NCBI GenBank assembly: GCA_963707025.1
Contig: CAVPOM010000006.1
Coordinates: 224,001-288,000, forward strand
From: an uncultured Verrucomicrobiae bacterium
GTDB lineage: Bacteria; Verrucomicrobiota; Verrucomicrobiia; Limisphaerales; Palsa-1400
Direction of reading: 5' to 3'
Length of the DNA: 64,000 nt
Part shown: one piece after another, positions 3,632-54,978 of the stretch
Numbering within the stretch: position 1 is the stretch's first letter
How the letters are laid out: each line of letters opens with the position of its first letter
The notes under the pieces: model-generated
Told to the model about the DNA's origin: nothing
Databases searched by the model: none
The model's input: only the letters and a program-made list of their open reading frames with translations
Program-made: the position numbers and the translations under genes

Positions 3632-3660
3632 CGCGGGGGAATGGAGGGATGGAGTGATGG

Positions 3661-3750
3661 AAATGCAGAATGCAGAATGCAGAATGCAGAATGAAAAATG
3701 CAGAATGGAAAATGCAGAATTCCGAATCCGTGGAATCCGTGAAATCCGTG
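3661..3750 (+). repeat. Short tandem repeats: (AATGCAG)n heptamers followed by (AATCCGTG[G/A])n
   Basis: aatgcagaatgcagaatgcagaatgcagaatg... then gaatccgtggaatccgtgaaatccgtgg; same heptamer recurs at 52939-52970. Confidence 0.9.
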
Positions 3751-3801
3751 GTAAAAATCCTCGCGATGCGGAGCGCATCTGCCCGATGCAGTGGCGTCGC
3801 A

Positions 3802-4070
3802 GCGCAAATTTCTGCGCGAGGGAGCTTACCGCGCCCGGAACATTTTACGGCCAAGCTGTTTTGCAGCGTCGAGTTTTGGATTGCCTGCCCGCCGTAGCTC
3901 GCAGAGCGAAGGAGGGAAGGTCTGCCGAAATTGATCGGCTTTTGTGTGAGATCGCCGCACCAGCAATTCCGAATTCCGGGCTTGATCCTTTCACCCTCTC
4001 ACTTTCGTTCATAAGCGTTTGCAGTGCAATCTGTTGCAGTTGAGATAGGACTAAACTATAGGGTGACGCC
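3802..4070 (+). repeat. Copy A of three-copy gene-end relic (RKFL..FTAKLFCxVEFW.E.LPKLI) with a 33-nt REP insertion at 3884-3916
   Basis: Aligns by eye with 4896-5052 (+) and 6705-6852 (-). Confidence 0.85.
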
Positions 4071-4082
4071 TTTGCCAGCCGC

Positions 4083-4111
4083 TTGATTCTTCGCCCGGCA
4101 CAATGTAGTTT
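4083..4111 (+). promoter_or_regulatory. Sigma70-type promoter of TA module 1, probably leaderless
   Basis: TTGATT-17 nt-TAGTTT, 6 nt before ATG 4118, no Shine-Dalgarno. Confidence 0.55.
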
Positions 4112-4117
4112 TCCCGG

Positions 4118-4318
4118 ATGACCGCTGTCGCCAACAAGCTGCTGGACGATTTCAAGAAGCTCGCCCCGCACGAGCAATTGATCGTCCGCGAAAGAGTGAT
4201 CTCCCTCACCGAAGTCCGCCAGCGCGAGGCCTTGAACCGCCTGCGGGGCTCCAGCGCCGGGAAGGGGCTGCTGGACAAACTGCTCGCCGACCGGGCCAGG
4301 GAGCGCGCCCGTGGCTGA
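4118..4318 (+). CDS. Putative antitoxin (VapB-like position)
   Basis: 66 aa, overlaps the start of the downstream PIN-domain gene. Confidence 0.7.
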   Translation: MTAVANKLLDDFKKLAPHEQLIVRERVISLTEVRQREALNRLRGSSAGKGLLDKLLADRARERARG

Positions 4319-4739
4319 CGCGATCGTCTTGGACACTTCGGCCATTTTGACCCTGACCGGCAACGAACCCGGGGCCGACGAAGTGCAGACGTATCTGGCG
4401 GAGGCCATCGCAGGGCGCATTCAGTTGCACGGCTCGTTCGCCAGCCTGACCGAGGTGGAATACATCACCGCGCAGGAGGAGGGAGCGGAGGCCGCCCGCC
4501 AGCGGCTGGCTGACCTCAACGCGATGCCCGTCCAATGGCTGCACTCGGACGCCGCCCTGTGCCACGAGGCGGCGAGGCTCAAGGCAGCGCACAAAATTTC
4601 ATTCGCCGACGCCTTTATCGCGGCCACCGCCAGCCGGTTCGACGCCACGCTTGTGCATAAAGACCCGGAGTTCCACCCGCTCGCTGCCGAGGTGAAGCAG
4701 CACTTGCTCCCGCCAAAGTCCGGTGCCCCAAGCTCGTGA
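4311..4739 (+). CDS. vapC: PIN-domain toxin, VapC family
   Basis: IVLDTSAIL, SLTEV, ISFADAFIAATA, LVHKDPEF acidic PIN motifs. Confidence 0.9.
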   Translation: MADAIVLDTSAILTLTGNEPGADEVQTYLAEAIAGRIQLHGSFASLTEVEYITAQEEGAEAARQRLADLNAMPVQWLHSDAALCHEAARLKAAHKISFADAFIAATASRFDATLVHKDPEFHPLAAEVKQHLLPPKSGAPSS

Positions 4740-4793: not shown

Positions 4794-4916
4794 CCTGTCC
4801 ACCGTCCTGTCCGCCGTCCTGTCCACCGTCCTGTCCACCGTAGGCCCTGCGAAGGTGGAAGGCCCGGCGAAGGTGGAAGGCCGTAAGAAGGCGGAAGCTC
4901 GCAGAGCGAAGGAGGG
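4794..4916 (+). repeat. Four-deep nested REP-like micro-element (4 left halves then 4 right halves)
   Basis: 4x CCTGTCCRCCGT (4794, 4806, 4818, 4830) then 4x AG..GAAGGNGG (4842, 4860, 4878, 4896). Confidence 0.9.
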
Positions 4917-36694: not shown

Positions 36695-38169
36695 GCGCGT
36701 TCTCCCCCGCTGGCTGGCGCCCGGCCGGGCGGCGGGGCCGCTGGCGTCCTGGGGCCGAGGCCCAGCTTGGCCCGGAGGTAATTGGCATTTTGGGGCGAAA
36801 GATAATGTTCCATTTGCTCCAGTTCGTCTCTTCTTAACTTCGACATCGGCTCAAGGGCGATGCGCTTGCCATTGGGGTCGTTCAGTCCTCCGGGAAGGCG
36901 GCTCATGTAGCTGCGCCAAATCGCCTCCGCCAAATGGCTGAAATTCTCCGCCCGGTCGGCATCATCCCCGATCAAGCACAGGTACTCCTGCGAAATCAAA
37001 CCCAGGATGACCCCGGTCATCTTGGGTTGATCCAGTTCCCCGATCTCGGATTGGATTTGTTTGAAGGCGTATTCTTCGACGGTCAGATTGGTCTCGTCGC
37101 CGGTGATGGCATTGGTGAAGTTCTGCTTCAAACAGTTGAACCAGTGCAAGGCTTCCCGGTCGCGGTTATACTCATACAACAGCACGACGGCCTCCTTGAG
37201 AAAATTCTTCTGGGCGTTCTGCACCACCTTCTTGTCCGTCTTGTCCAGCAGGGTCCTTTCGTAGGAGGCGTTGACCTTGGGGACAAGGTCCAAATCGGGC
37301 CAAAGAATGAAATTCTCCTCCGTGACATTAGTGACCCACGGGGGCAGGGCGCCGCCGCGCCGGCAGGCCTGCTGCATGATGGAGTAGGCGAAACGGCGCA
37401 CCAGGTCCCGGTCCTCCTGCGTTCCCTTGCGCACGCCCATCTCCGCCCAGTAAATGGCGTGGGCGTCCGGCAAACGCCAGTCCAGCGGCCCGTAGGTCTG
37501 GTCAATGTGCTGGATGAATTCCGGGTCCATCTGATAATCCTCGCGCAATTTCCTGGCCCGTTCGCGCTCGGCCGGCGTCTGGGGGTGGAGCAAGGCGGCA
37601 AAGTCGGGATGGCCGCCCAGGATGTCCTGCATTTGCTGGGCCCAGCGGATTTTGTAAAGCATGTGGGCGTCGTCCAGGTTCTGCCCGATCTTATGGCGGA
37701 AAATCCAGGACAGATCCTGGTAGATTTTCGGATCGGCCGGGTTGTAGTGCAGGCCCTTGTGCAGCAGTTCGATGCCGCGCTGCACCCAGCGCCAGCGTTC
37801 CTCGAAGTCCTTGCACTTGACAGATATGTTGTAGGCCATGTTCCAGGCCTGCATCCGCCAAACCTCGCTGTAATGCGGCTCCAGCGTGGTGATCCAGTCG
37901 GCCAACTGGACCATTTCAAAATACCGCTCCTCATCCTGCAGTTCGGTGGCCCGCATCCACAGGGCGTTGGAAATCAGCCCGCGGAAACCGCCCAGGGCCA
38001 CGGTGGTGAAGGCCAGGATGGGTGGCGCGTTGGACAAGGGCGGCAGGCGGGTGAAGCCATAGGCCGCGCGGTCCGTGTTCAGCCGCCCCTGCATTTGCGA
38101 GGAGCCGCAAAAAAGCGCCGCCGCCAATCCCACCAGGGCCGGCTTATAAAATCTGGCTCGAAAATTCAT
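36691..38169 (-). CDS. Conserved hypothetical membrane-anchored helical protein
   Basis: ALGGFRGL..NALWMRA, L.PH...VW..QAWNMAYNISV, DWR...AHAIYWA; backbone codon usage. Confidence 0.75.
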   Translation of the reverse strand: MNFRARFYKPALVGLAAALFCGSSQMQGRLNTDRAAYGFTRLPPLSNAPPILAFTTVALGGFRGLISNALWMRATELQDEERYFEMVQLADWITTLEPHYSEVWRMQAWNMAYNISVKCKDFEERWRWVQRGIELLHKGLHYNPADPKIYQDLSWIFRHKIGQNLDDAHMLYKIRWAQQMQDILGGHPDFAALLHPQTPAERERARKLREDYQMDPEFIQHIDQTYGPLDWRLPDAHAIYWAEMGVRKGTQEDRDLVRRFAYSIMQQACRRGGALPPWVTNVTEENFILWPDLDLVPKVNASYERTLLDKTDKKVVQNAQKNFLKEAVVLLYEYNRDREALHWFNCLKQNFTNAITGDETNLTVEEYAFKQIQSEIGELDQPKMTGVILGLISQEYLCLIGDDADRAENFSHLAEAIWRSYMSRLPGGLNDPNGKRIALEPMSKLRRDELEQMEHYLSPQNANYLRAKLGLGPRTPAAPPPGRAPASGGERA

Positions 38170-38301
38170 CCTTCGCCGCTCCAACTTAATGCACAATGTT
38201 CAAAATCCAAAGTCTTATATTCAACGCGCCGCCGGCCTCCCAATTCCGCCAGCCCGCCGATTTTTAGCCGCGCCTGGAAAGCGGGGCCAATGCCAAATGC
38301 A

Positions 38302-38373
38302 TCCTCCTCCGCCAGGCCTTCCTCCTTCGCAGGGCCTGCCTGCCCGCCGTCGCATGCAGGGCGCTTGTTCGCC
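38302..38373 (-). other. Degenerate attC5 disrupted by REP halves
   Basis: GGCGAAC (38373-38367) complements cassette start GTTCGC; followed by aggccctgcgaaggagga/aggcctggcggaggagga; no clear R' box. Confidence 0.55.
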
Positions 38374-38383
38374 GCCGCGGTGT

Positions 38384-38941
38384 TCATTCGCTTTTGAAAC
38401 CAAGCAGCTTGAGGGACTGCGTTACCGCATCCGTATCTGAATGGCCATCGGCTGCGGCACGCAGACGCTCCTTAAGCGGTTCTCGAATCGGGGAATCGCT
38501 GGCAGTGAGAAGTGCTTCGATTTCGAGGAACCGTGTGAACCAAGGCTGGCCCTCGTGCTCCACGTATCGCGCGAGATCATCGATGCACCTGTCGTAGGTG
38601 CTACTGTTCTGAGCGTTAAAGCGAAAGTGGTAGTGAGCCGCGCGGAGGCGCTCAGAGAAATCGTAGCGAGGGCCGTTGGGTGAGAGGGCCTCAAGCACAT
38701 CGTTCAGAACCCGAATCCCGAAGCCAACGTCTAAGGTGACCGAGTAGTTCCTGGGCCGCCCGTAGGAGCTGCCTTGGCGGAAAAGAGTGATGAAATCAGC
38801 AGGGTGCTCGTGCCTCCGTGCCCACAACATCGTCTTGGTTCGATTGAAGCCAATCGGCTCGATTCGCGCAGAGAAGTCCTTAGCTGCACTCTCCACACCC
38901 TGGCGGACGACTTGTGTAGTGTCAGTGGGGACGGGCTTCAT
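38384..38941 (-). CDS. Cassette 5 hypothetical protein (possibly DUF4304-like)
   Basis: 185 aa, starts just after the attC4 GTT; family call tentative. Confidence 0.75.
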   Translation of the reverse strand: MKPVPTDTTQVVRQGVESAAKDFSARIEPIGFNRTKTMLWARRHEHPADFITLFRQGSSYGRPRNYSVTLDVGFGIRVLNDVLEALSPNGPRYDFSERLRAAHYHFRFNAQNSSTYDRCIDDLARYVEHEGQPWFTRFLEIEALLTASDSPIREPLKERLRAAADGHSDTDAVTQSLKLLGFKSE

Positions 38942-38947
38942 ACTTTC

Positions 38948-39082
38948 TGCGAACGTAGAAAGTTGAGCCACCGCCGACTCGCGGCGTGAATCCCGACTTG
39001 TCGGGAAACAAAAGCGCCATCCGCCTTCGCTCCGCAGCTACGGTCGGACAGGACGGCGGTTGGCTCCGGAGACTGGTGAGGT
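38948..39082 (-). other. attC4 containing a 33-nt REP insertion (39020-39052)
   Basis: ACCTCAC..ggagccaaccgcc..ggcggtggctca..GTTCGCA; arms match attC1. Confidence 0.85.
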
Positions 39083-39083
39083 A

Positions 39084-39440
39084 TCATTGTTTGTGCCATA
39101 TCATCTGTGTGTGCCCATCAATACTCAAAACCACCAACTTGTCTCCAAGAAGACTCACAACTTTGTTGCTCTCCACTTGGAAAGCGCCGTCCTGACGATC
39201 AGCATTGGTCACTGTACCAATGGCGTATCCGTTCTTGACCTGCCACGTTCCCTTAACGGTCTCGATACCGGATCTCTTCATAACATAAGTCCCATCAGCC
39301 CTGTTCTCGATTACTTTGGCTGGATCTGAATCCAATGACCACACCCCGACTATACCACGGCGAATAACAGCATCGCTTGTGGTCGTTGTGCAAGCCGTCA
39401 GCAACAAGCTCAATGCGAATAATGTAGGTATGAATTTCAT
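39084..39440 (-). CDS. Cassette 4 lipoprotein (lipocalin-like beta-barrel)
   Basis: Lipobox LTAC; IVGVW, DGTY, GTW motifs. Confidence 0.8.
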   Translation of the reverse strand: MKFIPTLFALSLLLTACTTTTSDAVIRRGIVGVWSLDSDPAKVIENRADGTYVMKRSGIETVKGTWQVKNGYAIGTVTNADRQDGAFQVESNKVVSLLGDKLVVLSIDGHTQMIWHKQ

Positions 39441-39455
39441 AAAGGTGTGAATGAC

Positions 39456-39558
39456 GCCTAACGTCCAGAGCTCAGGCACGCGGGACCAAACCACCTGAAT
39501 CCGGGCTTGTCGGGAAACAAAAGCGCCATCCCTCGTTGGCTGCAGTGAATTGTTAGGC
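39456..39558 (-). other. attC3 (103 bp)
   Basis: GCCTAAC aattcactgcag ... cctgagctctggac GTTAGGC. Confidence 0.92.
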
Positions 39559-39568
39559 ATCAATGTGT

Positions 39569-39871
39569 TCATGTGAAGAACAACTTTCCAATGACGACTA
39601 CGAGTAGAACCCAAGCGAGAATAATCGCGATGGCAATCGCAACCAGACGAAGATAGTAGCCGAAAAACCGACCAATCGTCTTCGATATGCGCCAACGTTC
39701 ACGTAAGGCAGACGTTGCATAATATAGACTTCCGAGCGTGATGAGAATACCAATAGGGAGTCGGACGAACATCGGAGCGTGCGGAAGGGCAAACCACCAC
39801 AGTGGGAACAACACGGCGATCAAAACCGCCTCTGGCCAATCGGCAGTAGAGATTTTCAGGCGTGGTCGCAT
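39569..39871 (-). CDS. Cassette 3 small membrane protein
   Basis: 100 aa, three hydrophobic segments; cassette ends complementary over 10 bp (gttaggcatc/gatgcctaac). Confidence 0.78.
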   Translation of the reverse strand: MRPRLKISTADWPEAVLIAVLFPLWWFALPHAPMFVRLPIGILITLGSLYYATSALRERWRISKTIGRFFGYYLRLVAIAIAIILAWVLLVVVIGKLFFT

Positions 39872-39874
39872 GAT

Positions 39875-40000
39875 GCCTAACGTCCAAGCTCAGGCACAGC
39901 CACCGGAGACTGAGCTTGGCTGCAATGATGATGTTCAAATTTCATGTCCCGGTCAAAACTGAAAGGGGCGGTGGCTGTTGCCTGCAGCGATTTGTTAGGC
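39875..40000 (-). other. attC2 (126 bp)
   Basis: GCCTAAC aaatcgctgcaggcaacagccacc ... ggtggctgtgcctgagcttggac GTTAGGC. Confidence 0.92.
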
Positions 40001-40010
40001 GTCATCGTCG

Positions 40011-40388
40011 CTACTCCCATCTGGCCTCAACATTCGGCCTACCAAGAAGCTGGACGAGGTGGTCGCTGCTTACCAGTGCAAAATGTGATACGCCTCTGTT
40101 GCCGCTATAAATCTGACTGAACTGCTCCAACCAACTGGAACCTTCCACAAGTAATAATGGAAATGTTTGTGACGGTCTGAGCATCGGGAGAAGTGAAACC
40201 GGCAGAAAGTCGAACCCCGGACACTCCTGCTCGAAACGAAGTGCGACAACTCCTGTGAAGTGAAGCACCAAAACTCTGCTGCCAACCATCCGCACTGTCA
40301 GCTTGTCATCCTGAAATGAATACGAAATTGAATCGAACGGTGAATCAATATCTGGCACCGGCTGCCACTTGGAAACGCGTAATGTCAT
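40011..40388 (-). CDS. Cassette 2 hypothetical protein
   Basis: 125 aa ORF filling the interval between attC1 and attC2. Confidence 0.8.
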   Translation of the reverse strand: MTLRVSKWQPVPDIDSPFDSISYSFQDDKLTVRMVGSRVLVLHFTGVVALRFEQECPGFDFLPVSLLPMLRPSQTFPLLLVEGSSWLEQFSQIYSGNRGVSHFALVSSDHLVQLLGRPNVEARWE

Positions 40389-40392
40389 AAAC

Positions 40393-40491
40393 GTCTAACG
40401 AAAAAAGCTGAGCCACCGCCGACTCGCGACGTGAACCGCGATAGCGGAACTGCAAGCGCCAACGGCGGTTGGCTCCGGCGACTTGTTAGGC
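40393..40491 (-). other. attC1 (99 bp)
   Basis: GCCTAAC aagtcgccggagccaaccgcc ... ggcggtggctcagcttttttc GTTAGAC. Confidence 0.92.
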
Positions 40492-40508
40492 CACTGGCCA
40501 ATCATAAC

Positions 40509-40736
40509 TCAATGTCGTATAATCAGCGATGCGGCTAAAGTGCAATACTCTGCCGGAACTGTCCAGACCTCTGCGTGCTGGCCGCCAGCTCCACCTTCCG
40601 AAATGCGCTTGCATCGTGGCTCTCCAAACCAAAGTGCGAGATGGTCATCTGGTGCGCCGCCGTCCTGCGGTGTGCCAACAACCACAGCGAGCAATCCATC
40701 CGTCTCAACTAACTGTCCTCGCTTGAAAATACTCAT
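40509..40736 (-). CDS. Cassette 1 hypothetical protein
   Basis: 75 aa; cassette ends complementary over 11 bp (gttaggccact/agtggcctaac). Confidence 0.78.
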   Translation of the reverse strand: MSIFKRGQLVETDGLLAVVVGTPQDGGAPDDHLALWFGEPRCKRISEGGAGGQHAEVWTVPAEYCTLAASLIIRH

Positions 40737-40747
40737 GGTGCGAAGTG

Positions 40748-40775
40748 GCCTAACAATTAATATACGCCAGCTTGT
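40748..40775 (-). other. Putative attI site
   Basis: Non-palindromic ctggcgtatattaattGTTAGGC between first cassette and intI start. Confidence 0.75.
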
Positions 40776-40795
40776 TCGTGTATTACGATGTCCGA

Positions 40796-41044
40796 ATGAA
40801 CACTTCCGAAAGAGTGCGGCGGCTTACGGAAATTGTTCGACGCCAACATCTTGCGCTCGCGACCAAGCGCACTTGCTGCGCCTGGCTCAGGCGATATTGC
40901 GACTTGCTCAAAGGGCTGCCGTTGCGTATGCCAGGTGAACATAAACAGGAACGGTTTCTGACCGTCCTGACCCGAAAGGATGTCGCCGCCAGTACCCAAA
41001 ATCAAGCCTTTAATGCAATTAACCGACCGCGGGGCGCATCTTGA
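40796..41044 (+). pseudogene. intI: Integron integrase N-terminal (SAM-like) fragment
   Basis: RRQH.AL.T......WLRRY, ERFLT.L...DVAASTQNQAFNAI; similarity ends near 41020, catalytic domain absent. Confidence 0.88.
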
Positions 41045-41168
41045 CACTGCTGCTGGCGGAGTGCGGCCGTCCCCGGCCGCAGCAAGCCGGGGATTTTTTG
41101 GGTGCGCAGGAAGATCACCGGCGCGCCGTGTTTCCCACGCTGCTGCGCCCGAGGACGGGGAATGGCGC

Positions 41169-42656
41169 TTAAATAAGGGAAGCCTTTCTTTTGGCCCGGG
41201 CCAGACGGCGGCGTTTATTGCGGCTCCAGGGCTGGCGGTATTGATGCCGCGATTTGTTCAAATGGGGGTATTTGGATCGTTTCTTGACAGCGCGCGGCTC
41301 CGCTCTTCCCGGACGCCTGGGCACCAGATCGGTCGCCAGCCTTCGGAGCAGCCGCTGCCATAATTGGCGGCGCCGTCCCCCTTTGTTCCGGGCGTGTCCG
41401 AGTTGTGCCAGTGCCTGCGTCCATTGCCGGAAGGCGTCCAGGCTGCCTTTGAAACTGATCCGATCCAAGTCCACGTTCTGGCTTTGCGCGGCTTCGGCCA
41501 TGATCCAGCGCAGGAAATTATGGGCGGTGAGGAAGAGCAGGAGTTCTTTCTCCACCATGCGGGGACAGAGGCAATGCAGGCTCTGCATGCCCAGGGTGGT
41601 TTTGAGATCGTCCAGGCACAGTTCCATGCGCCAGCGCCGGGCATAAGCGGCCGCCAGTTCCTCCGCTGGAAAAAGCGCCGCATCCAACAGGGTCGTGACC
41701 AGGGTCAGGTGGCGGGTGCGGAAGCCGGCCCGGCTCAGGCGCGCGCGCAGCACCCGCACCGTGATCTGCGGCGGCAGTCCGAGCCATTCCAGGAACGAAA
41801 GCAGGGGCGAAGGCCGGCCGGGTTTGGACCAGGTAAAGAGCGCGTCCCAGTGACCCAGGCGTTGGCGGGCCTGGCGGAAATCCACCTTGCGGTTGCGCAC
41901 GGAGACCCGCGCGAGCAAATCCACGCCCAGGAGTTGGAGGACGGCGGCGATAATATAAACCCCATAGGCGCGGTCGCCCAAGAGGATGTCGCCGGGGTGC
42001 AAAGCCGAGCGCAAGCCGTGGAGAAACAGAGCCAGTTCGGAGGAGCGCAGGCTGCCGGTGGCTTTGGCCAAAAGGGCGCCGCTGGCGGCGGAGAACAGAG
42101 CCACCACGCGCAGGTGGGGAAAGCCGCCGCCGGGCTGCAGGCTTTGGCTGGGGGGAAAGGCCGCCCGATTGGCCGGGGTGTCGGGCAGGTGGGTGCCGCT
42201 GCCATCAACCGCTTTCAACGGGCGGCCCTGTAGCAGCGTACTGGCCGGGGCGCGCTTTTCGGCGCTGTCGGCGCTGGCCGCGAAGGCTTGCTCCAGCAAG
42301 GCCAGGGGGAGTTTGGCGCGGGCCTGGCAATAGGCGCTGCTGTCCGGCTCCGGTTCCGGGCCTTGGACCAAGGCCAGCAGGGCCTGCACCTGAAGGACGA
42401 CGTGGCGGCAGGAAGTGTTGGCTTGGAAGACTGGCCAGACCCAGCACCACCAGGTGCGAACCAGAGTGTAAACCTGCTCGCGGGAGTAGTCGCCGGCGGC
42501 CGGTTTTCGCAGGAGGTCGGTGGGCAAGGCGGGAGCCAGGCGGTCCTCGATCTGACTCAAGGTGGCGTGACGGAGGCGCGCCAGGCTGTGGGCACAGCGG
42601 CGGCCCGCCGCCGCCAGACGGGGCCGCCAGGCCGGGAAGAAGGGGGTGTCGGGCAT
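41169..42656 (-). CDS. IS4-family DDE transposase
   Basis: SAYCQARAKL, AVDGS, LGDRAY, Y.RRW.ME....DLK (YREK-like), RISFKG, EPRAVK. Confidence 0.95.
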   Translation of the reverse strand: MPDTPFFPAWRPRLAAAGRRCAHSLARLRHATLSQIEDRLAPALPTDLLRKPAAGDYSREQVYTLVRTWWCWVWPVFQANTSCRHVVLQVQALLALVQGPEPEPDSSAYCQARAKLPLALLEQAFAASADSAEKRAPASTLLQGRPLKAVDGSGTHLPDTPANRAAFPPSQSLQPGGGFPHLRVVALFSAASGALLAKATGSLRSSELALFLHGLRSALHPGDILLGDRAYGVYIIAAVLQLLGVDLLARVSVRNRKVDFRQARQRLGHWDALFTWSKPGRPSPLLSFLEWLGLPPQITVRVLRARLSRAGFRTRHLTLVTTLLDAALFPAEELAAAYARRWRMELCLDDLKTTLGMQSLHCLCPRMVEKELLLFLTAHNFLRWIMAEAAQSQNVDLDRISFKGSLDAFRQWTQALAQLGHARNKGGRRRQLWQRLLRRLATDLVPRRPGRAEPRAVKKRSKYPHLNKSRHQYRQPWSRNKRRRLARAKRKASLI

Positions 42657-42680
42657 AAGGCGGTATATATACCGCCTTAT
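42655..42680. promoter_or_regulatory. Perfect 26-bp palindrome between the divergent IS genes
   Basis: ataaggcggtata|tataccgccttat overlapping the transposase ATG. Confidence 0.7.
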
Positions 42681-42705
42681 TGACACGTCTGCTACTCTTT
42701 TCTTT

Positions 42706-50747: not shown

Positions 50748-52931
50748 CTAGACCAGCCCGACCCATTTGCGGCCGATCCAATAGACGGTGAGGAGGAAGA
50801 GGATGGCGCCGCCCCACCGCGGATCGCTCCAGATGCGGACGCGTTTTTCGACCGGCCCCGGTTCGGGCAGAAGTGAAATCTGCTTGACAACATTGTCGAA
50901 GTCGTCCGCCGTGAAACTGGCGCCCCGGGAGACGGCGGAAATCTCGCGCAAGACCCGGGCGTTGACGGGCTGGCCCAGTTTCTCCAGCAGGGGCGGAGCC
51001 ACCAGCAACGCGGTTTCCAGATGGCGGCCATGCGCCGGGGAGGCGGCCTCCATTTTGTAGCGGCCGCTTTCCAGGGCGGCGAAGGCGGACTTGAAAACGC
51101 CCCAGCCTCCTGGCAGGGGCGCGAATTCCAACCGCTCCACCCGGCCGGAGGGCGAGGTGATTTTGCCGGTGACCGGCCCCTTGTCAATAGGAAAACCGGC
51201 CTCGTCCAGCACGGTGCTTTGCAGATAAACGGTGTCGCCGGCCTGCGGAGCTTCCGGGCTGTAGCTGAGGCGGATGCCTTCCTTTTCGGAGAGGTGGCGC
51301 TGATGGGCCATCCAGCGGACGACCTGCCCCCAGAAGCGGTAATGAAATTTGTCCTCCACGCCGCGCCGCCAGCGCCAGGCGCTGTCGGTGCCGAGAAAGA
51401 GAACCTTGCCCGCGTCGGCCGAACGGGTGACGAGCAGGGGCATGCGGCCAAAGTCGTTGCGCAGGGAGGAATGGACGGCGAGGACCTCGGAGCCGGGCCG
51501 GCTCTTTTCCACGGCGGCGGACCAAAAGAAGCCGGGCAATTGCTTCCACAACTCGTCATTGCGATCTTCGTCGGAATCGAAGCGGGTGAGCCAATGGCGT
51601 TTGCCGGCGCTGGTCAGGACCAGTTGCACCTCGTTTTGCAATCCGATGCCCTGCGGTTTGGACGGGTCCAGGATGACGGGATATAAATCGGCCAGCGGGC
51701 TTTGGAGAAAAGTGGCCTCGCGCCCGCGTTGGCCCGGGACAAAGACCAGGCCGCTGGCTTGCTGCTCGACCAGGCCCCGGATCATGGCGGCGTTGGTCAG
51801 GGTCAGCTCATTTTGGCCGATGCCGACGTCGCCCAGAAAAATCACATCGTACGGGGCCAGCGCTTCCTTGGTGGCGGGGAAGGCCGGGATGTAGTTGGGG
51901 CCGTCGCCCGGCCCGATGTCAGGATGGTAGAGCAGGCAGTGCATGTCCACGCCGGGATCGCGGGCCAGGGCGTTGCGCAAATAGCGATATTCCCAGCGCG
52001 GCAGGGAATCCACCACCAGCACCTTGAGTTTTTCCTGGCGGATGGAAATATGGAAGGAACGTTGGTTGTTTTCGGCCATGCTTTCCTCCGGTTCCACCGG
52101 CACTTTGACGGTGGCGGTGATTTCCCCGCCGGTGCGCGGGGACCAGAGAATGGCGTCTTCCACCGCGCCGTTGGGCGGGATGGTAATGTCCTTTTTGGCC
52201 TGCTCGCCCTGCGGATCGTAGATCGAGACGGTCGTCTTGACTTGGCGGGCCAGGGTGCTGGTGACCTTGAAGGGAACGGCGATGTCCTCTCCCAATAGAC
52301 CGTAGGCCGGCATGGAAACATTTTCCAGAATCAAGTCCGGCATGGGTGTCGGGCGGCCTACCGCCACGCTGAAAATGGGAATGTTTTGCTCGCGATAGCG
52401 GGTGGCGGTGGCGAGCGGGGATTGGCCCAGGTTCCAATCGCCGTCGGTCAAGACCAGCACGGCCTTGAGATTCTTGAAATCATGCAACGCGCGTTCCAGG
52501 GCGGCGTTGAGGTCGGTGCCATTGATGGCGTTGGCGTTGGTGGAGGGCCTGGCGAAATCCTCCACGGTCACTTTGGCCTTGTTTTGCAGGGGCAGCCAAA
52601 ACTTGCCGGCGCGCTTGGCCTCCAGCCATTGGGCGCGGCTGACCACCTGGTTGGTCAGGGTCAGATCGCGCGTTTTCATGCTGTCGGAAGCGTCCATGAG
52701 GATGGCGATCTCCGGCAGGACGTTGCGCTGGAGGTGTTCGACGTATTCCGGGCGCAGCGAGGTGAAGACGAGCAGTGTCACCAATAAAAAGCGCAGGCAC
52801 TCCAGCCGTCCCACCGCCCGGCCGCGGGCGCTGCGCTGCCAGTTGGCCCAGCCCAGCCAGCCCGCGAAAAGCCAGATGGCCAGCGCGGGCGCGAGCACGG
52901 CAAGCGGGGCGGCGAGTTGAAGGTGGTTCAC
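50748..52931 (-). CDS. Membrane protein with VWA and GATase1-like domains
   Basis: DASDSM MIDAS, LTDG, PRWEYRYLRNAL.RD, WRWRRG. Confidence 0.8.
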   Translation of the reverse strand: MNHLQLAAPLAVLAPALAIWLFAGWLGWANWQRSARGRAVGRLECLRFLLVTLLVFTSLRPEYVEHLQRNVLPEIAILMDASDSMKTRDLTLTNQVVSRAQWLEAKRAGKFWLPLQNKAKVTVEDFARPSTNANAINGTDLNAALERALHDFKNLKAVLVLTDGDWNLGQSPLATATRYREQNIPIFSVAVGRPTPMPDLILENVSMPAYGLLGEDIAVPFKVTSTLARQVKTTVSIYDPQGEQAKKDITIPPNGAVEDAILWSPRTGGEITATVKVPVEPEESMAENNQRSFHISIRQEKLKVLVVDSLPRWEYRYLRNALARDPGVDMHCLLYHPDIGPGDGPNYIPAFPATKEALAPYDVIFLGDVGIGQNELTLTNAAMIRGLVEQQASGLVFVPGQRGREATFLQSPLADLYPVILDPSKPQGIGLQNEVQLVLTSAGKRHWLTRFDSDEDRNDELWKQLPGFFWSAAVEKSRPGSEVLAVHSSLRNDFGRMPLLVTRSADAGKVLFLGTDSAWRWRRGVEDKFHYRFWGQVVRWMAHQRHLSEKEGIRLSYSPEAPQAGDTVYLQSTVLDEAGFPIDKGPVTGKITSPSGRVERLEFAPLPGGWGVFKSAFAALESGRYKMEAASPAHGRHLETALLVAPPLLEKLGQPVNARVLREISAVSRGASFTADDFDNVVKQISLLPEPGPVEKRVRIWSDPRWGGAILFLLTVYWIGRKWVGLV

Positions 52932-52938
52932 AACGGAA

Positions 52939-52970
52939 AATGCAGAATGCAGAATGCAGAATGCAAAATG
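52939..52970 (+). repeat. (AATGCAG)n heptamer repeat
   Basis: aatgcagaatgcagaatgcagaatgcaaaatg. Confidence 0.9.
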
Positions 52971-52983
52971 ATAAAGGGTTTCA

Positions 52984-54978
52984 TCAGGCAGTTTGCTTCT
53001 CCGGTTGCCTCGCGGTTTTCATCACCCCGGCGCCTTTGGCCGCCGGTCTTTTGCCGGGCAGGATCAAAAGGCCTTCGCCCAGCAGCAGGAGGAGCATGAG
53101 AAACAAAAACAAACGCCAAATTTCCCCCTGCAATTGGCCCGTGTCCACCCGCCGGTCTTGCAACATTTGCAGCGGCAGATCGCCAAACAATTTCCTGAGG
53201 TCGCCGGAGTCCACCATTTCCGGGTCGTCCTCGCCCGCGGGACGATTGACGGCCAAGAGTTGATCGCCGGATTGATAGACCCCGGCCTGGAAACGGATGT
53301 CTTTGGGCTCCTTGGAATCCACCGCCACCCACGTTTTGGCCAGATCGGCCGCGCTCAATTCGCCGCAAGCGGCGCTGGCCACCGATTGCAGGCGGCGCGA
53401 GCCGTCCTGGAGCAGGCGTTGCAGCATCGGCACCAGCACCGGGCCATCCGCCAGGCTGGACCAATCGTCGGCGGGCAGCGAGGCGCAAAAATAAAACTCG
53501 CCCCGGCCCAAACTTTGCCGCGCCAGCAGGGCCGCGCCGTCTTCAAATGCCGCCAGCACGTTTTTTTGTCCGGCAATGATCTGGCGTCGCGGAAAATCCG
53601 TTTGCCCGAGCGGCAGGCTGATGCGCTCATTGCTCCGGGCCAGCGGGCCTTCGTCCTCGTTCCAGCGCAAAACATGAAAGCCGCCCGGCGCCGGGGAAAC
53701 TTCGACCGCGCCCCAGCCCAGGGCGTCGAATTGTCCGGCGTCGGCGCGGCCGGGCGGAAAAAAGACGGCCACGCCGCCCCCGGCCACGAAGGACTGCACG
53801 CGCGCGGCGGTCTCGCCGTCGGGCAGCGCGTCCTGCCAGAGGAGAAGGGAGCAGCCATCGAGATTGGCGGCGGGAAATTCGGCGGGCGCGAGCAGCGCGG
53901 CCGGCTGGCCGGAGCGGGCCGCGGCGGCCAGTTGCAAATAACGCGCCGTGTCCGGGGAACGGCTCACCACCACTCCGCGCAGCGGCGTCTCGGCCCCGTA
54001 AACAAAATAAGCCGAGTTGTCACGCGCATTGGCATCGGCCGGCAAGGTAAAACTGCCCCAGCCGCCCGCCGGATGCGCCCCCAGATCAACCCGGCGGCGC
54101 CAGCGCAGGGACTGGCCCTCGAAGGCGGCCGGCGTTTGCGTTTGCGCCCCGTCCAGCGTCAGCGTCACCGGCAGGGAAGAGTTGGCGGGGCGGTTGCGCT
54201 CCAGATCGAGGACGAATTGCAGTTCCGATTGGTCGCCCTGGGAACGCCGCGCCACTTCCTTGAGGGAGATGGATGCGTTGGCGTCGGCGGGCTGGCTCAG
54301 GACCAGAAGGCGCACGCGCACTTTCTGGGAGAGCGACCCGAGCTGGCCGGCCAGGTCCTTCCAGCGCGGGTCCTCCGGATGCCAGTTGCTGCGCTGGGCG
54401 TCGGAAGCGATCCAGAGTTCCGCCGAGCCGGCGCGGTTTTCCATCAGCCAGTTGAAGGCGGCCCGGAGCATGGCGGGAACATCGGCGGCGGTGTCGGTCG
54501 GCCCGGTGGCGGGCAGGCGCATGAGATTGGTGGCCCGGCCGGCTTCGGCCGGGAGGAGGGTGGCGCTGTCAATAAGAACCAGATGGCTGCTTTCCTCAAA
54601 TTCCCCCGCCGCCTCCGCCAGCAGCCGGATGGCTTGCTCGCGCTTGCTGACCCCACCCGTCTTGATTTCCATGCTGGCGGAGCGGTCCAGCAGAATGACA
54701 ATCGCGTCCGGCGCGGAGGAAACCGCCCAGCCCATCCAGCCGCCCGCCAGCGGCCGGGCCAGAAAGAGGCACAGCGCGGCCACCGCGGCCATGCGGAAAA
54801 GCAGGATAAGAAGCTGGCGCAATTTGGTGTTGCTGACCGAGCTGCGCGTGGCCGCCACCAGAAAGCGCATGGCGGCCCAGGGATGGGAGCGATGGCGCAG
54901 ACGGTTGAGGAGGTGGATGATCACCGGCACCAAGAGCAGCGGCAAACCCCAGAGCAGAATGGGCTGAAGGAATTGCAT
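52984..54978 (-). CDS. BatA-domain/VWA protein
   Basis: MQFLQP.LLWGL....PVIIHLL....WAAMRFL; DRSASM. Confidence 0.88.
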   Translation of the reverse strand: MQFLQPILLWGLPLLLVPVIIHLLNRLRHRSHPWAAMRFLVAATRSSVSNTKLRQLLILLFRMAAVAALCLFLARPLAGGWMGWAVSSAPDAIVILLDRSASMEIKTGGVSKREQAIRLLAEAAGEFEESSHLVLIDSATLLPAEAGRATNLMRLPATGPTDTAADVPAMLRAAFNWLMENRAGSAELWIASDAQRSNWHPEDPRWKDLAGQLGSLSQKVRVRLLVLSQPADANASISLKEVARRSQGDQSELQFVLDLERNRPANSSLPVTLTLDGAQTQTPAAFEGQSLRWRRRVDLGAHPAGGWGSFTLPADANARDNSAYFVYGAETPLRGVVVSRSPDTARYLQLAAAARSGQPAALLAPAEFPAANLDGCSLLLWQDALPDGETAARVQSFVAGGGVAVFFPPGRADAGQFDALGWGAVEVSPAPGGFHVLRWNEDEGPLARSNERISLPLGQTDFPRRQIIAGQKNVLAAFEDGAALLARQSLGRGEFYFCASLPADDWSSLADGPVLVPMLQRLLQDGSRRLQSVASAACGELSAADLAKTWVAVDSKEPKDIRFQAGVYQSGDQLLAVNRPAGEDDPEMVDSGDLRKLFGDLPLQMLQDRRVDTGQLQGEIWRLFLFLMLLLLLGEGLLILPGKRPAAKGAGVMKTARQPEKQTA

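Follow-up and report, generated by a model that had tools for sequence, protein, structure and literature searches.

We report that a 64,000-nt stretch from the genome of an uncultured Verrucomicrobiae bacterium (hereafter the window) contains an integron cassette array in which one recombination site, attC4 (38948..39082, minus strand), carries a 33-nt hairpin micro-element (39020..39052, minus strand; defined by sequence, folding, and alignment). We regard it as practically certain that this 33-nt string is a real insertion. An earlier note on this DNA had described it as a non-coding hairpin similar to repetitive extragenic palindromic (REP) sequences, and the insert indeed belongs to a dispersed family of mobile hairpins of approximately 30 nt, which is apparently undescribed. 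On balance, we favor an explanation in which the element is a non-autonomous mobile hairpin that is served by a GIY-YIG nuclease and whose variant in attC4 descends from an old insertion.

The insertion is most directly seen by comparing filled and empty alleles. When 5 filled and 6 empty sites were aligned, they matched base for base around a 33-column gap with zero duplicated bases, which upholds the clean insertion without target-site duplication that the earlier note had read in attC4. The attC1 site (40393..40491, minus strand; arm profiles and alignment), which is empty at the junction used in attC4, reads as that note gave, and four empty sites elsewhere in the genome have the terminal loop of attC4 and are therefore closer controls than attC1. 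The exact empty junction was found in 28 copies in 13/31 family genomes, covering 7 of the 10 genera, and the filled junction gave 6 matches in 3/31 genomes from two genera. Hence, the insert is derived and not ancestral to the attC family. In addition, environmental contigs match attC4 as far as the exact junction and then stop. Within the window the 33-nt string occurs once, and it was not matched in any of 100 shuffles. It is non-coding, without a transposase or reverse transcriptase of its own, and lies within the variable terminal structure of attC4, 1 nt past the L''-side stem. The variant found here, which we call lineage A, has an unpaired 4-nt tail at its 5' end, a 6-bp stem in which one base bulges out, a GTA/GAA internal loop, and a short inner stem-loop. 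The tetranucleotide CCGT stands 5' of the insert, as it does in a four-deep nested array of the element (4794..4916, plus strand), so that the junction common to the two places, to which the earlier note had pointed, is confirmed.

To delimit the family we used a loose left-half/right-half pattern, which gave 85 hits in the genome versus 4 when the genome was reversed. Filtering by stem (one mismatch allowed) and consensus kept 64 of these hits and dropped 21. Three of the 64 loci look false, and three lineage-A copies were added by hand (67 loci). Thus, the genome holds about 64 element loci, 20 of them nested, with 95 left halves in all; a single copy in the window lies at 3884..3916 (plus strand). 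The typical unit consists of a 4-nt unpaired tail, a 6-bp stem, the GTA/GAA internal loop, and a short inner stem-loop. Its stem covaries, because the central pair is Watson-Crick in 42/64 loci versus 20 expected. On insertion, element copies keep fixed ends and leave the target unduplicated; their targets are many and unrelated, with a preference for their own kind at CCGT^AG (the caret marks the junction). In 10 balanced nested arrays, 16 of 24 units pair inside-out and 8 in order, which indicates that the arrays arose by genuine insertion at CCGT^AG inside the element. Exact empty sites were also recovered by joining the flanks for five other target families, namely three REP-like hairpins (14, 10, and 2 copies), a tandem heptamer (8–11 copies), and one other (1 copy); most loci have no exact empty copy. 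Intergenic tandem heptamer repeats of the AATGCAG type (3641-3760 and 52918-52989 in the window, and many other sites in the genome) often host the element, frequently with nested arrays. In genome G020 (L006-L014), most element copies lie at a fixed point of one 10-nt tandem repeat family, so that multiplication there seems to involve the host repeat and not just the element. Two copies of a mobile-looking module (C13:6701 and C18:304389) each have an element directly upstream of a replication-protein-like frame, at an identical position but as different variants, which suggests repeated insertion or conversion at one site.

With the strict pattern, the element was found in 13/24 family genomes and in 0/16 other genomes of the order, and copies that match more loosely are present in two other classes of the phylum. 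Viral contigs contained 6 element loci and 4 weak hits to the nuclease described below, and no attC site. The element has asymmetric ends and no duplication in filled/empty pairs, and therefore lacks the terminal inverted repeats and target-site duplication by which miniature inverted-repeat transposable elements are recognized. Its tail is CCTG and the motif GTAG lies within the internal loop, so no unpaired GTAG or CGTC tag is present at its terminus.

We searched for attC sites with our own arm profiles, built from 9 seed sites, and found 18 paired sites in the window's genome. Two ab initio structural scans for attC were dropped for being too strict or too noisy. The element is present in 7 of the 18 sites, which trace to two events. 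Lineage A, with the distinctive bulged variant, occupies 3 sites in this genome and 3 more in two relatives; a 17-nt signature of this lineage gave 5 exact matches in 3/301 genomes of the order, all 5 at the attC4-type junction. Lineage B comprises 3 sites and one decayed site, in the opposite orientation to lineage A and 7 nt further into the loop, and its empty form is present exactly in a relative (127 nt versus 157 nt when filled). The third event, with another variant at a third position, was detected in genome G018; no other element is present in the 26 paired attC sites that were fetched from relatives by right-arm similarity. All three independent insertions are in the variable terminal structure, 1–9 nt from the L''-side stem. 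Thus, within attC the element occurs at three positions and in both orientations, and it is not attC-specific.

Importantly for the history of these copies, the genes upstream of the lineage-A sites in the three genomes are unrelated, belonging to different Pfam families or to none. BLAST among 11 extracted frames produced only two short cross-hits, which we read as translation through shared attC sequence. The filled copies have the same insert and differ in their spacer, arms, and loops, and the spacer of the copy in the window also occurs in an empty site, which indicates that the attC sites are mosaics, the tagged segment having recombined with the arms of other attC sites. The spread on cassettes anticipated by the earlier note is therefore upheld by an insert found behind unrelated genes in three genomes and by attC having been struck three times independently. 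For each lineage, one old insertion followed by attC copying is the simplest reading, with both cassette genesis and gene conversion possible as the route, and we hold a single old insertion that was then copied with its attC site to be very likely. Repeated targeting does not explain most of the filled attC sites, which go back to one or two old insertions by copying. Wider searches were made with narrow patterns. A scan of 185,579 genomes for an attC arm plus the element, which would miss 2 lineage-A sites of relatives, gave 3 hits, two of them chance-like and one a real-looking attC with a small tailless hairpin that was not counted. In 400 phylum genomes, none of the 6 inspected matches, out of 9 outside the window's own genome, contained an attC site, and 3 were element copies in other classes. 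The family search gave 17 matches beyond the window's own genome, of which 12 were inspected and 1 was known beforehand; no new attC case emerged among these 13.

The choice of targets was analyzed in 37 contexts, represented by the 56 loci that remained after excluding 3 doubtful loci and 8 with residual-half flanks. Intergenic DNA (1.32 Mb) was defined with our own crude gene caller, and 14/67 element loci overlap called open reading frames. Outside its own kind, the element does not follow CCGT as a general target rule, because CCGT stands 5' of the insert in 1/37 contexts. T or A follows the site on its 3' side in 25/37 contexts versus 245/600 random intergenic positions (p = 0.0009). General targeting of hairpins, as that note had supposed, was likewise not borne out: the folding energy of empty sites is not below that of 600 random intergenic positions (p = 0.78), and empty sites are repeats in 13/37 contexts versus 26% of controls (p = 0.15). 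The attC4 site has 7 nt in common with the left half of the element directly before the junction. Since 0.013 such matches are expected among the 37 contexts, this junction probably has meaning as a mimic of the cognate site, and provides no general rule.

We then asked how the insert affects folding of the recombination site, using a constrained-fold probability that follows the pfold idea of PMC5371416 with our own pair constraints; this model does not extend to extrusion from the duplex, a step that PMC5371416 links with the size of the loop. In the predicted folds the insert forms its own side arm and the L-box stem remains intact. The pfold values with and without the insert were 0.47 and 0.47 for three lineage-B sites, 0.94 and 0.94 for attC4 (L box only), and 0.015/0.015 and 0.09/0.08 for the two remaining sites, and are thus unchanged in 6/6 sites. 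With the fold of the recombination stem unchanged, an effect of the insert on excision, as suggested by the earlier note, is unsupported. The R'' box is intact in 4/4 lineage-B sites. In attC4 itself the AAC/GTT core is not intact, because R'' reads CAC (AAC mutated to CAC), and the core is intact in the filled copies of C5 and G016. Consequently, attC4 is probably impaired regardless of the insert.

Similar hairpins occur beside GIY-YIG genes, and we therefore searched for such genes here. It revealed a subfamily of single-domain GIY-YIG genes of approximately 81 amino acids, located at the 3' ends of tRNA or transfer-messenger RNA (tmRNA) genes and preceded by a compound hairpin leader. The nuclease (81 amino acids; PF01541, E = 1.3e-13) is a single-domain protein below 150 amino acids encoded beside a hairpin. 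Its best PDB matches are UPF0213 and Slx1, NCBIfam gives none, and the ESM Atlas contains only generic GIY-YIG clusters. The central hairpin of the leader is sometimes near-identical to the element, and the 3' end of the leader, on the other strand, corresponds to the tail and left half of the element. We examined the best 80 of 544 metagenome relatives of the nuclease. The element core is present within 200 nt upstream in 48 of the 74 relatives with enough flank, versus 1/127 control windows and 15/1480 shuffles; the tail motif of the leader was found in 63/80 loci and the tRNA-end motif in 61/80. In 4/80 loci the leader itself has received a complete element, again at CCGT^. The nuclease gene occurs in 7/31 family genomes (E < 1e-30), among them all 3 lineage-A genomes. 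It is present in 5/7 family genomes with at least 5 strict element copies versus 2/18 with fewer (p = 0.007, with kin that are not independent). Compared at the sequence level, the element is a minimal version of the hairpin leader of the nuclease gene, and it is fairly probable that the GIY-YIG nuclease is its cognate enzyme and likely mobilizer.

Related arrangements were observed beside these loci. In L003 (G008:C74), positions 150-1400 and 3800-4340, a tRNA array without a nuclease gene bears many leader-like compound hairpins at the 3' ends of its tRNAs; two full micro-elements are located there at tRNA-end junctions. A second subfamily of small GIY-YIG genes lies inside duplicated tRNA gene ends (C11:124721-124951 and C9:13236-13466; also L043, L045, L050, and L072). 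It carries a short palindrome with a CCCGAC core that is also the inner hairpin of the attC3/attC4 terminal loop, which may hold a second, older micro-insert.

In the mechanism that we propose, the nuclease would bind the hairpin on single-stranded DNA and nick at or near it, either at the internal loop of the element or at the stem-loop junctions of look-alikes. Host repair would then copy or ligate the unit into the nick. The cognate motif would be the strong site, and the top of the attC stem, with its 7 common nucleotides, would be cut as a mimic; insertions in attC would survive because the terminal loop tolerates them, and would be close to neutral for folding. A precedent for the first step is SsnA, a single-domain GIY-YIG protein described as recognizing and cutting single-stranded DNA next to its own hairpin repeat (PMC11893778). 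We put forward only tentatively the stronger formulation, that a mobile DNA of approximately 30 nt is propagated by an Slx1-like GIY-YIG nuclease, and not by a transposase, which nicks folded single-stranded DNA at its own loop and at look-alike junctions such as attC tops, and that the resulting tags record new cassettes made by copying attC onto unrelated genes.

Several observations weigh against the explanation that we favor. GIY-YIG nucleases hydrolyze DNA and are not known to have strand-transfer chemistry, so that the joining step is conjecture. The nuclease loci are closely related and include redundant rows, genomes of the same genus are not independent, and the query alignment was drawn from loci already seen with the leader. 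In the window's genome, the conserved Tyr5 is replaced by Cys in the sole copy of the subfamily, and the leader was found on 0/78 tRNA and tmRNA genes of this genome (88% complete), so that present nuclease activity in it is doubtful. Genome G018, which bears the third attC event, gave no hit for the nuclease gene. The R'' box has decayed in 4/6 lineage-A sites versus 1/11 empty sites (p = 0.03; a small, post hoc comparison), which could mean that the insert is not neutral. Finally, attC makes up 2/37 contexts versus 0.05 expected (p = 0.0014, or p = 0.05 when conditioned on the prompting site), and three attC events all within 9 nt of the stem fit a structure-guided choice better than pure tolerance.

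These last points are also what speaks for an alternative that we consider unlikely, in which the element actively targets folded single-stranded hairpins, attC especially, and changes the excision rate of cassettes. It would account for the three events at 1–9 nt from the L''-side stem, the two attC contexts, the several REP-like hairpin families that were struck, the R'' decay in lineage A, and the finding, made post hoc, that 3/5 truncated attC sites break 0–2 nt from the insertion junction. It agrees poorly with empty sites whose folding energy and repeat status do not exceed those of random intergenic DNA, with heptamer tandem repeats being a main target, with an element in only 1/26 attC sites of relatives and no further clear case among the loci inspected in the narrow scans of the 185,579 genomes, the phylum, and the family, and with the unchanged pfold in all six sites. 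The idea that the 33 nt are ancestral to the attC family and were lost from other copies is almost certainly wrong: the filled form is common to three genomes in two genera, but the empty form occupies 13/31 genomes and 7/10 genera, about 60 loci other than attC carry members of the dispersed family that includes the 33 nt, and environmental contigs cease to match attC4 exactly at the junction.

A REP-type unit mobilized by an HUH/Y1 transposase (the REP-associated tyrosine transposase, RAYT) would also insert without target duplication, and this feature together with the strand asymmetry fits the single-stranded HUH chemistry described in PMC8266576. The genome has 10 Y1_Tnp matches, GTAG is present in the element, and the T or A 3' of the site in 25/37 contexts is partly like C|T and C|A cleavage. 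However, GTAG lies within the hairpin and not in a terminal foot, C stands 5' of the site in only 14/37 contexts, and at the 8 of 10 Y1 loci inspected by eye the flanks contained other repeat families and the element at none. The element is tied to the GIY-YIG leader instead, and we find RAYT mobilization quite improbable. Still somewhat less probable is an origin without a dedicated enzyme, by template switching or repair at hairpins with microhomology guiding the copy. The 7 nt that attC4 shares with the left half before the junction and the existence of head-to-tail and uneven arrays are in its favor, but the ends stay constant to the single base even where the target is unrelated and has no homology, nested arrays pair inside-out, lineages B and C have no such microhomology, and neither does the right junction of attC4.

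The closest known counterpart is the Ssn/NTS/SRM system of Neisseria meningitidis (SsnA; Chenal et al. 2025, PMC11893778), which likewise combines a small single-domain GIY-YIG gene with a tailed hairpin of approximately 30 nt in many dispersed copies, and for which that paper proposes an origin similar to insertion sequences. The degenerate SRM motif matched 0/67 element loci and 1/80 nuclease loci, with a pattern that is not fully sensitive, because it missed an SRM-like repeat seen by eye in L079. Unlike SRM, the element has a GTA/GAA internal loop and its gene has a one-sided leader at tRNA/tmRNA ends; in addition, it shows filled and empty alleles and self-nesting, and the pertinent passages of PMC11893778 show no such mobility for SRM. 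REP sequences of the RAYT/TnpA-REP systems (Di Nocera et al. 2013, PMC3733652; PMC8266576) are described as non-coding multicopy hairpins of 20–40 nt, without target duplication and sometimes inside other palindromes. In contrast to these, our element lacks the terminal GTAG/CGTC tag, REPIN or BIME dimers are not the rule, it inserts into its own internal loop, and the gene is GIY-YIG and not HUH. The element core had no match in 4 supplements of PMC3733652, a paper with 28 REP families whose consensus figures lay outside the comparison. The IS1111-attC elements and group IIC-attC introns reported in PMC3001079 are also mobile DNA inside attC sites of cassette arrays. They encode their own enzyme, are attC-specific, and insert in a single orientation close to the 5' end of attC, whereas the element is 30–33 nt long and non-coding, inserts in either orientation in the terminal loop, and is mostly found outside attC. 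According to PMC5371416, length variation of attC lies mostly in the variable terminal structure, which may branch; here, part of this variation can be traced to a mobile element and constitutes a heritable tag. No description of the element or of REP-like inserts in attC was found in searches of an open-access library. We conclude that the element is a variant of the nuclease-associated hairpin repeats with unusually clear evidence of mobility.

The array that hosts attC4 consists of five cassettes on the minus strand, starting from a truncated integron integrase (40772..41044, plus strand), a 5' fragment, from a divergent integrase, with the N-terminal domain PF13495 only. The hallmarks of attC, namely R''/R' cores, L''/L' boxes, and an imperfect hairpin after the gene, are present, with four paired sites in the array. 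The core site of the first cassette (40748..40754, minus strand) is, judging from its position, the probable attI crossover point. It is followed on the minus strand by the cassette-1 gene (40509..40736, 75 amino acids) with attC1, the cassette-2 gene (40011..40388, 125 amino acids) with attC2 (39875..40000; arm profiles; without the element), the cassette-3 gene (39569..39871, 100 amino acids) with attC3 (39456..39558; arm profiles and alignment; without the element and with terminal-loop sequence in common with attC4), the cassette-4 gene (39084..39440, 118 amino acids) upstream of attC4, and the cassette-5 gene (38384..38941, 185 amino acids). None of the five products belongs to a Pfam family. 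The array ends in a truncated site, called attC5 in the earlier note, which had placed halves of the element in it. The halves are there: an inverted left half (38339..38350, plus strand; inverted relative to the neighboring right halves) and two right halves (38302..38337, minus strand), which are a nested-array remnant in a heptamer-repeat context. The site itself is not a whole attC and consists of the R'' box and left arm only (38351..38373, minus strand); this probable arm is recognized by its place after the stop codon and a 6/7 match to the upstream core, and the arm profiles found no right arm at it. A full-length IntI was not identified among the 22 tyrosine recombinase matches in the genome, two of which were inspected.

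Within 40772-41160, the integrase gene breaks off behind the N-terminal domain and joins a REP-like pair of the GGAG type; next comes a gene for a DDE transposase (41169-42686, PF01609). C5 holds another integrase fragment (~202100-202300), with an array of eight sites beside it. Truncated attC sites that retain only the left arm are present at 38302-38373 in the window, at C5:224126, C7:101403, C13:107251, C12:21580, and C9:299398, and in L028. Three of five truncated sites in the genome diverge 0–2 nt from the attC4 insertion junction, at the top of the stem (a post hoc observation), and those in the window (38302-38373) and L028 break at the internal site of the element; a cleavage hotspot at the stem top is possible. 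Four environmental assemblies contain the attC1 type in great abundance and are nearly devoid of the cassette genes (small-share runs), which indicates that this attC family is a large shared pool. None of the sequencing runs contained more than 12% of the words of the array, and an Rfam scan of 37500-41500 gave 3 sub-threshold matches, none of them credible.

For integrons, attC is thus an occasional, tolerated host and not the speciality of the element, and what it gains is a lineage tag. Filled and empty alleles, self-nesting, and fixed ends provide direct comparative evidence for a mobile GIY-YIG-associated hairpin, which has only been proposed for Ssn/NTS, and the substrate (30 nt), the cut site (internal loop), and the candidate enzyme (81 amino acids) are all defined. 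De novo cassette formation is described as largely unknown in PMC5371416. A rare insertion that tags one attC lineage behind unrelated genes is a natural barcode with which attC copying at cassette genesis can be set against later gene conversion. If the reading of nuclease-driven propagation is true, this mobile DNA of approximately 30 nt would be among the smallest known.
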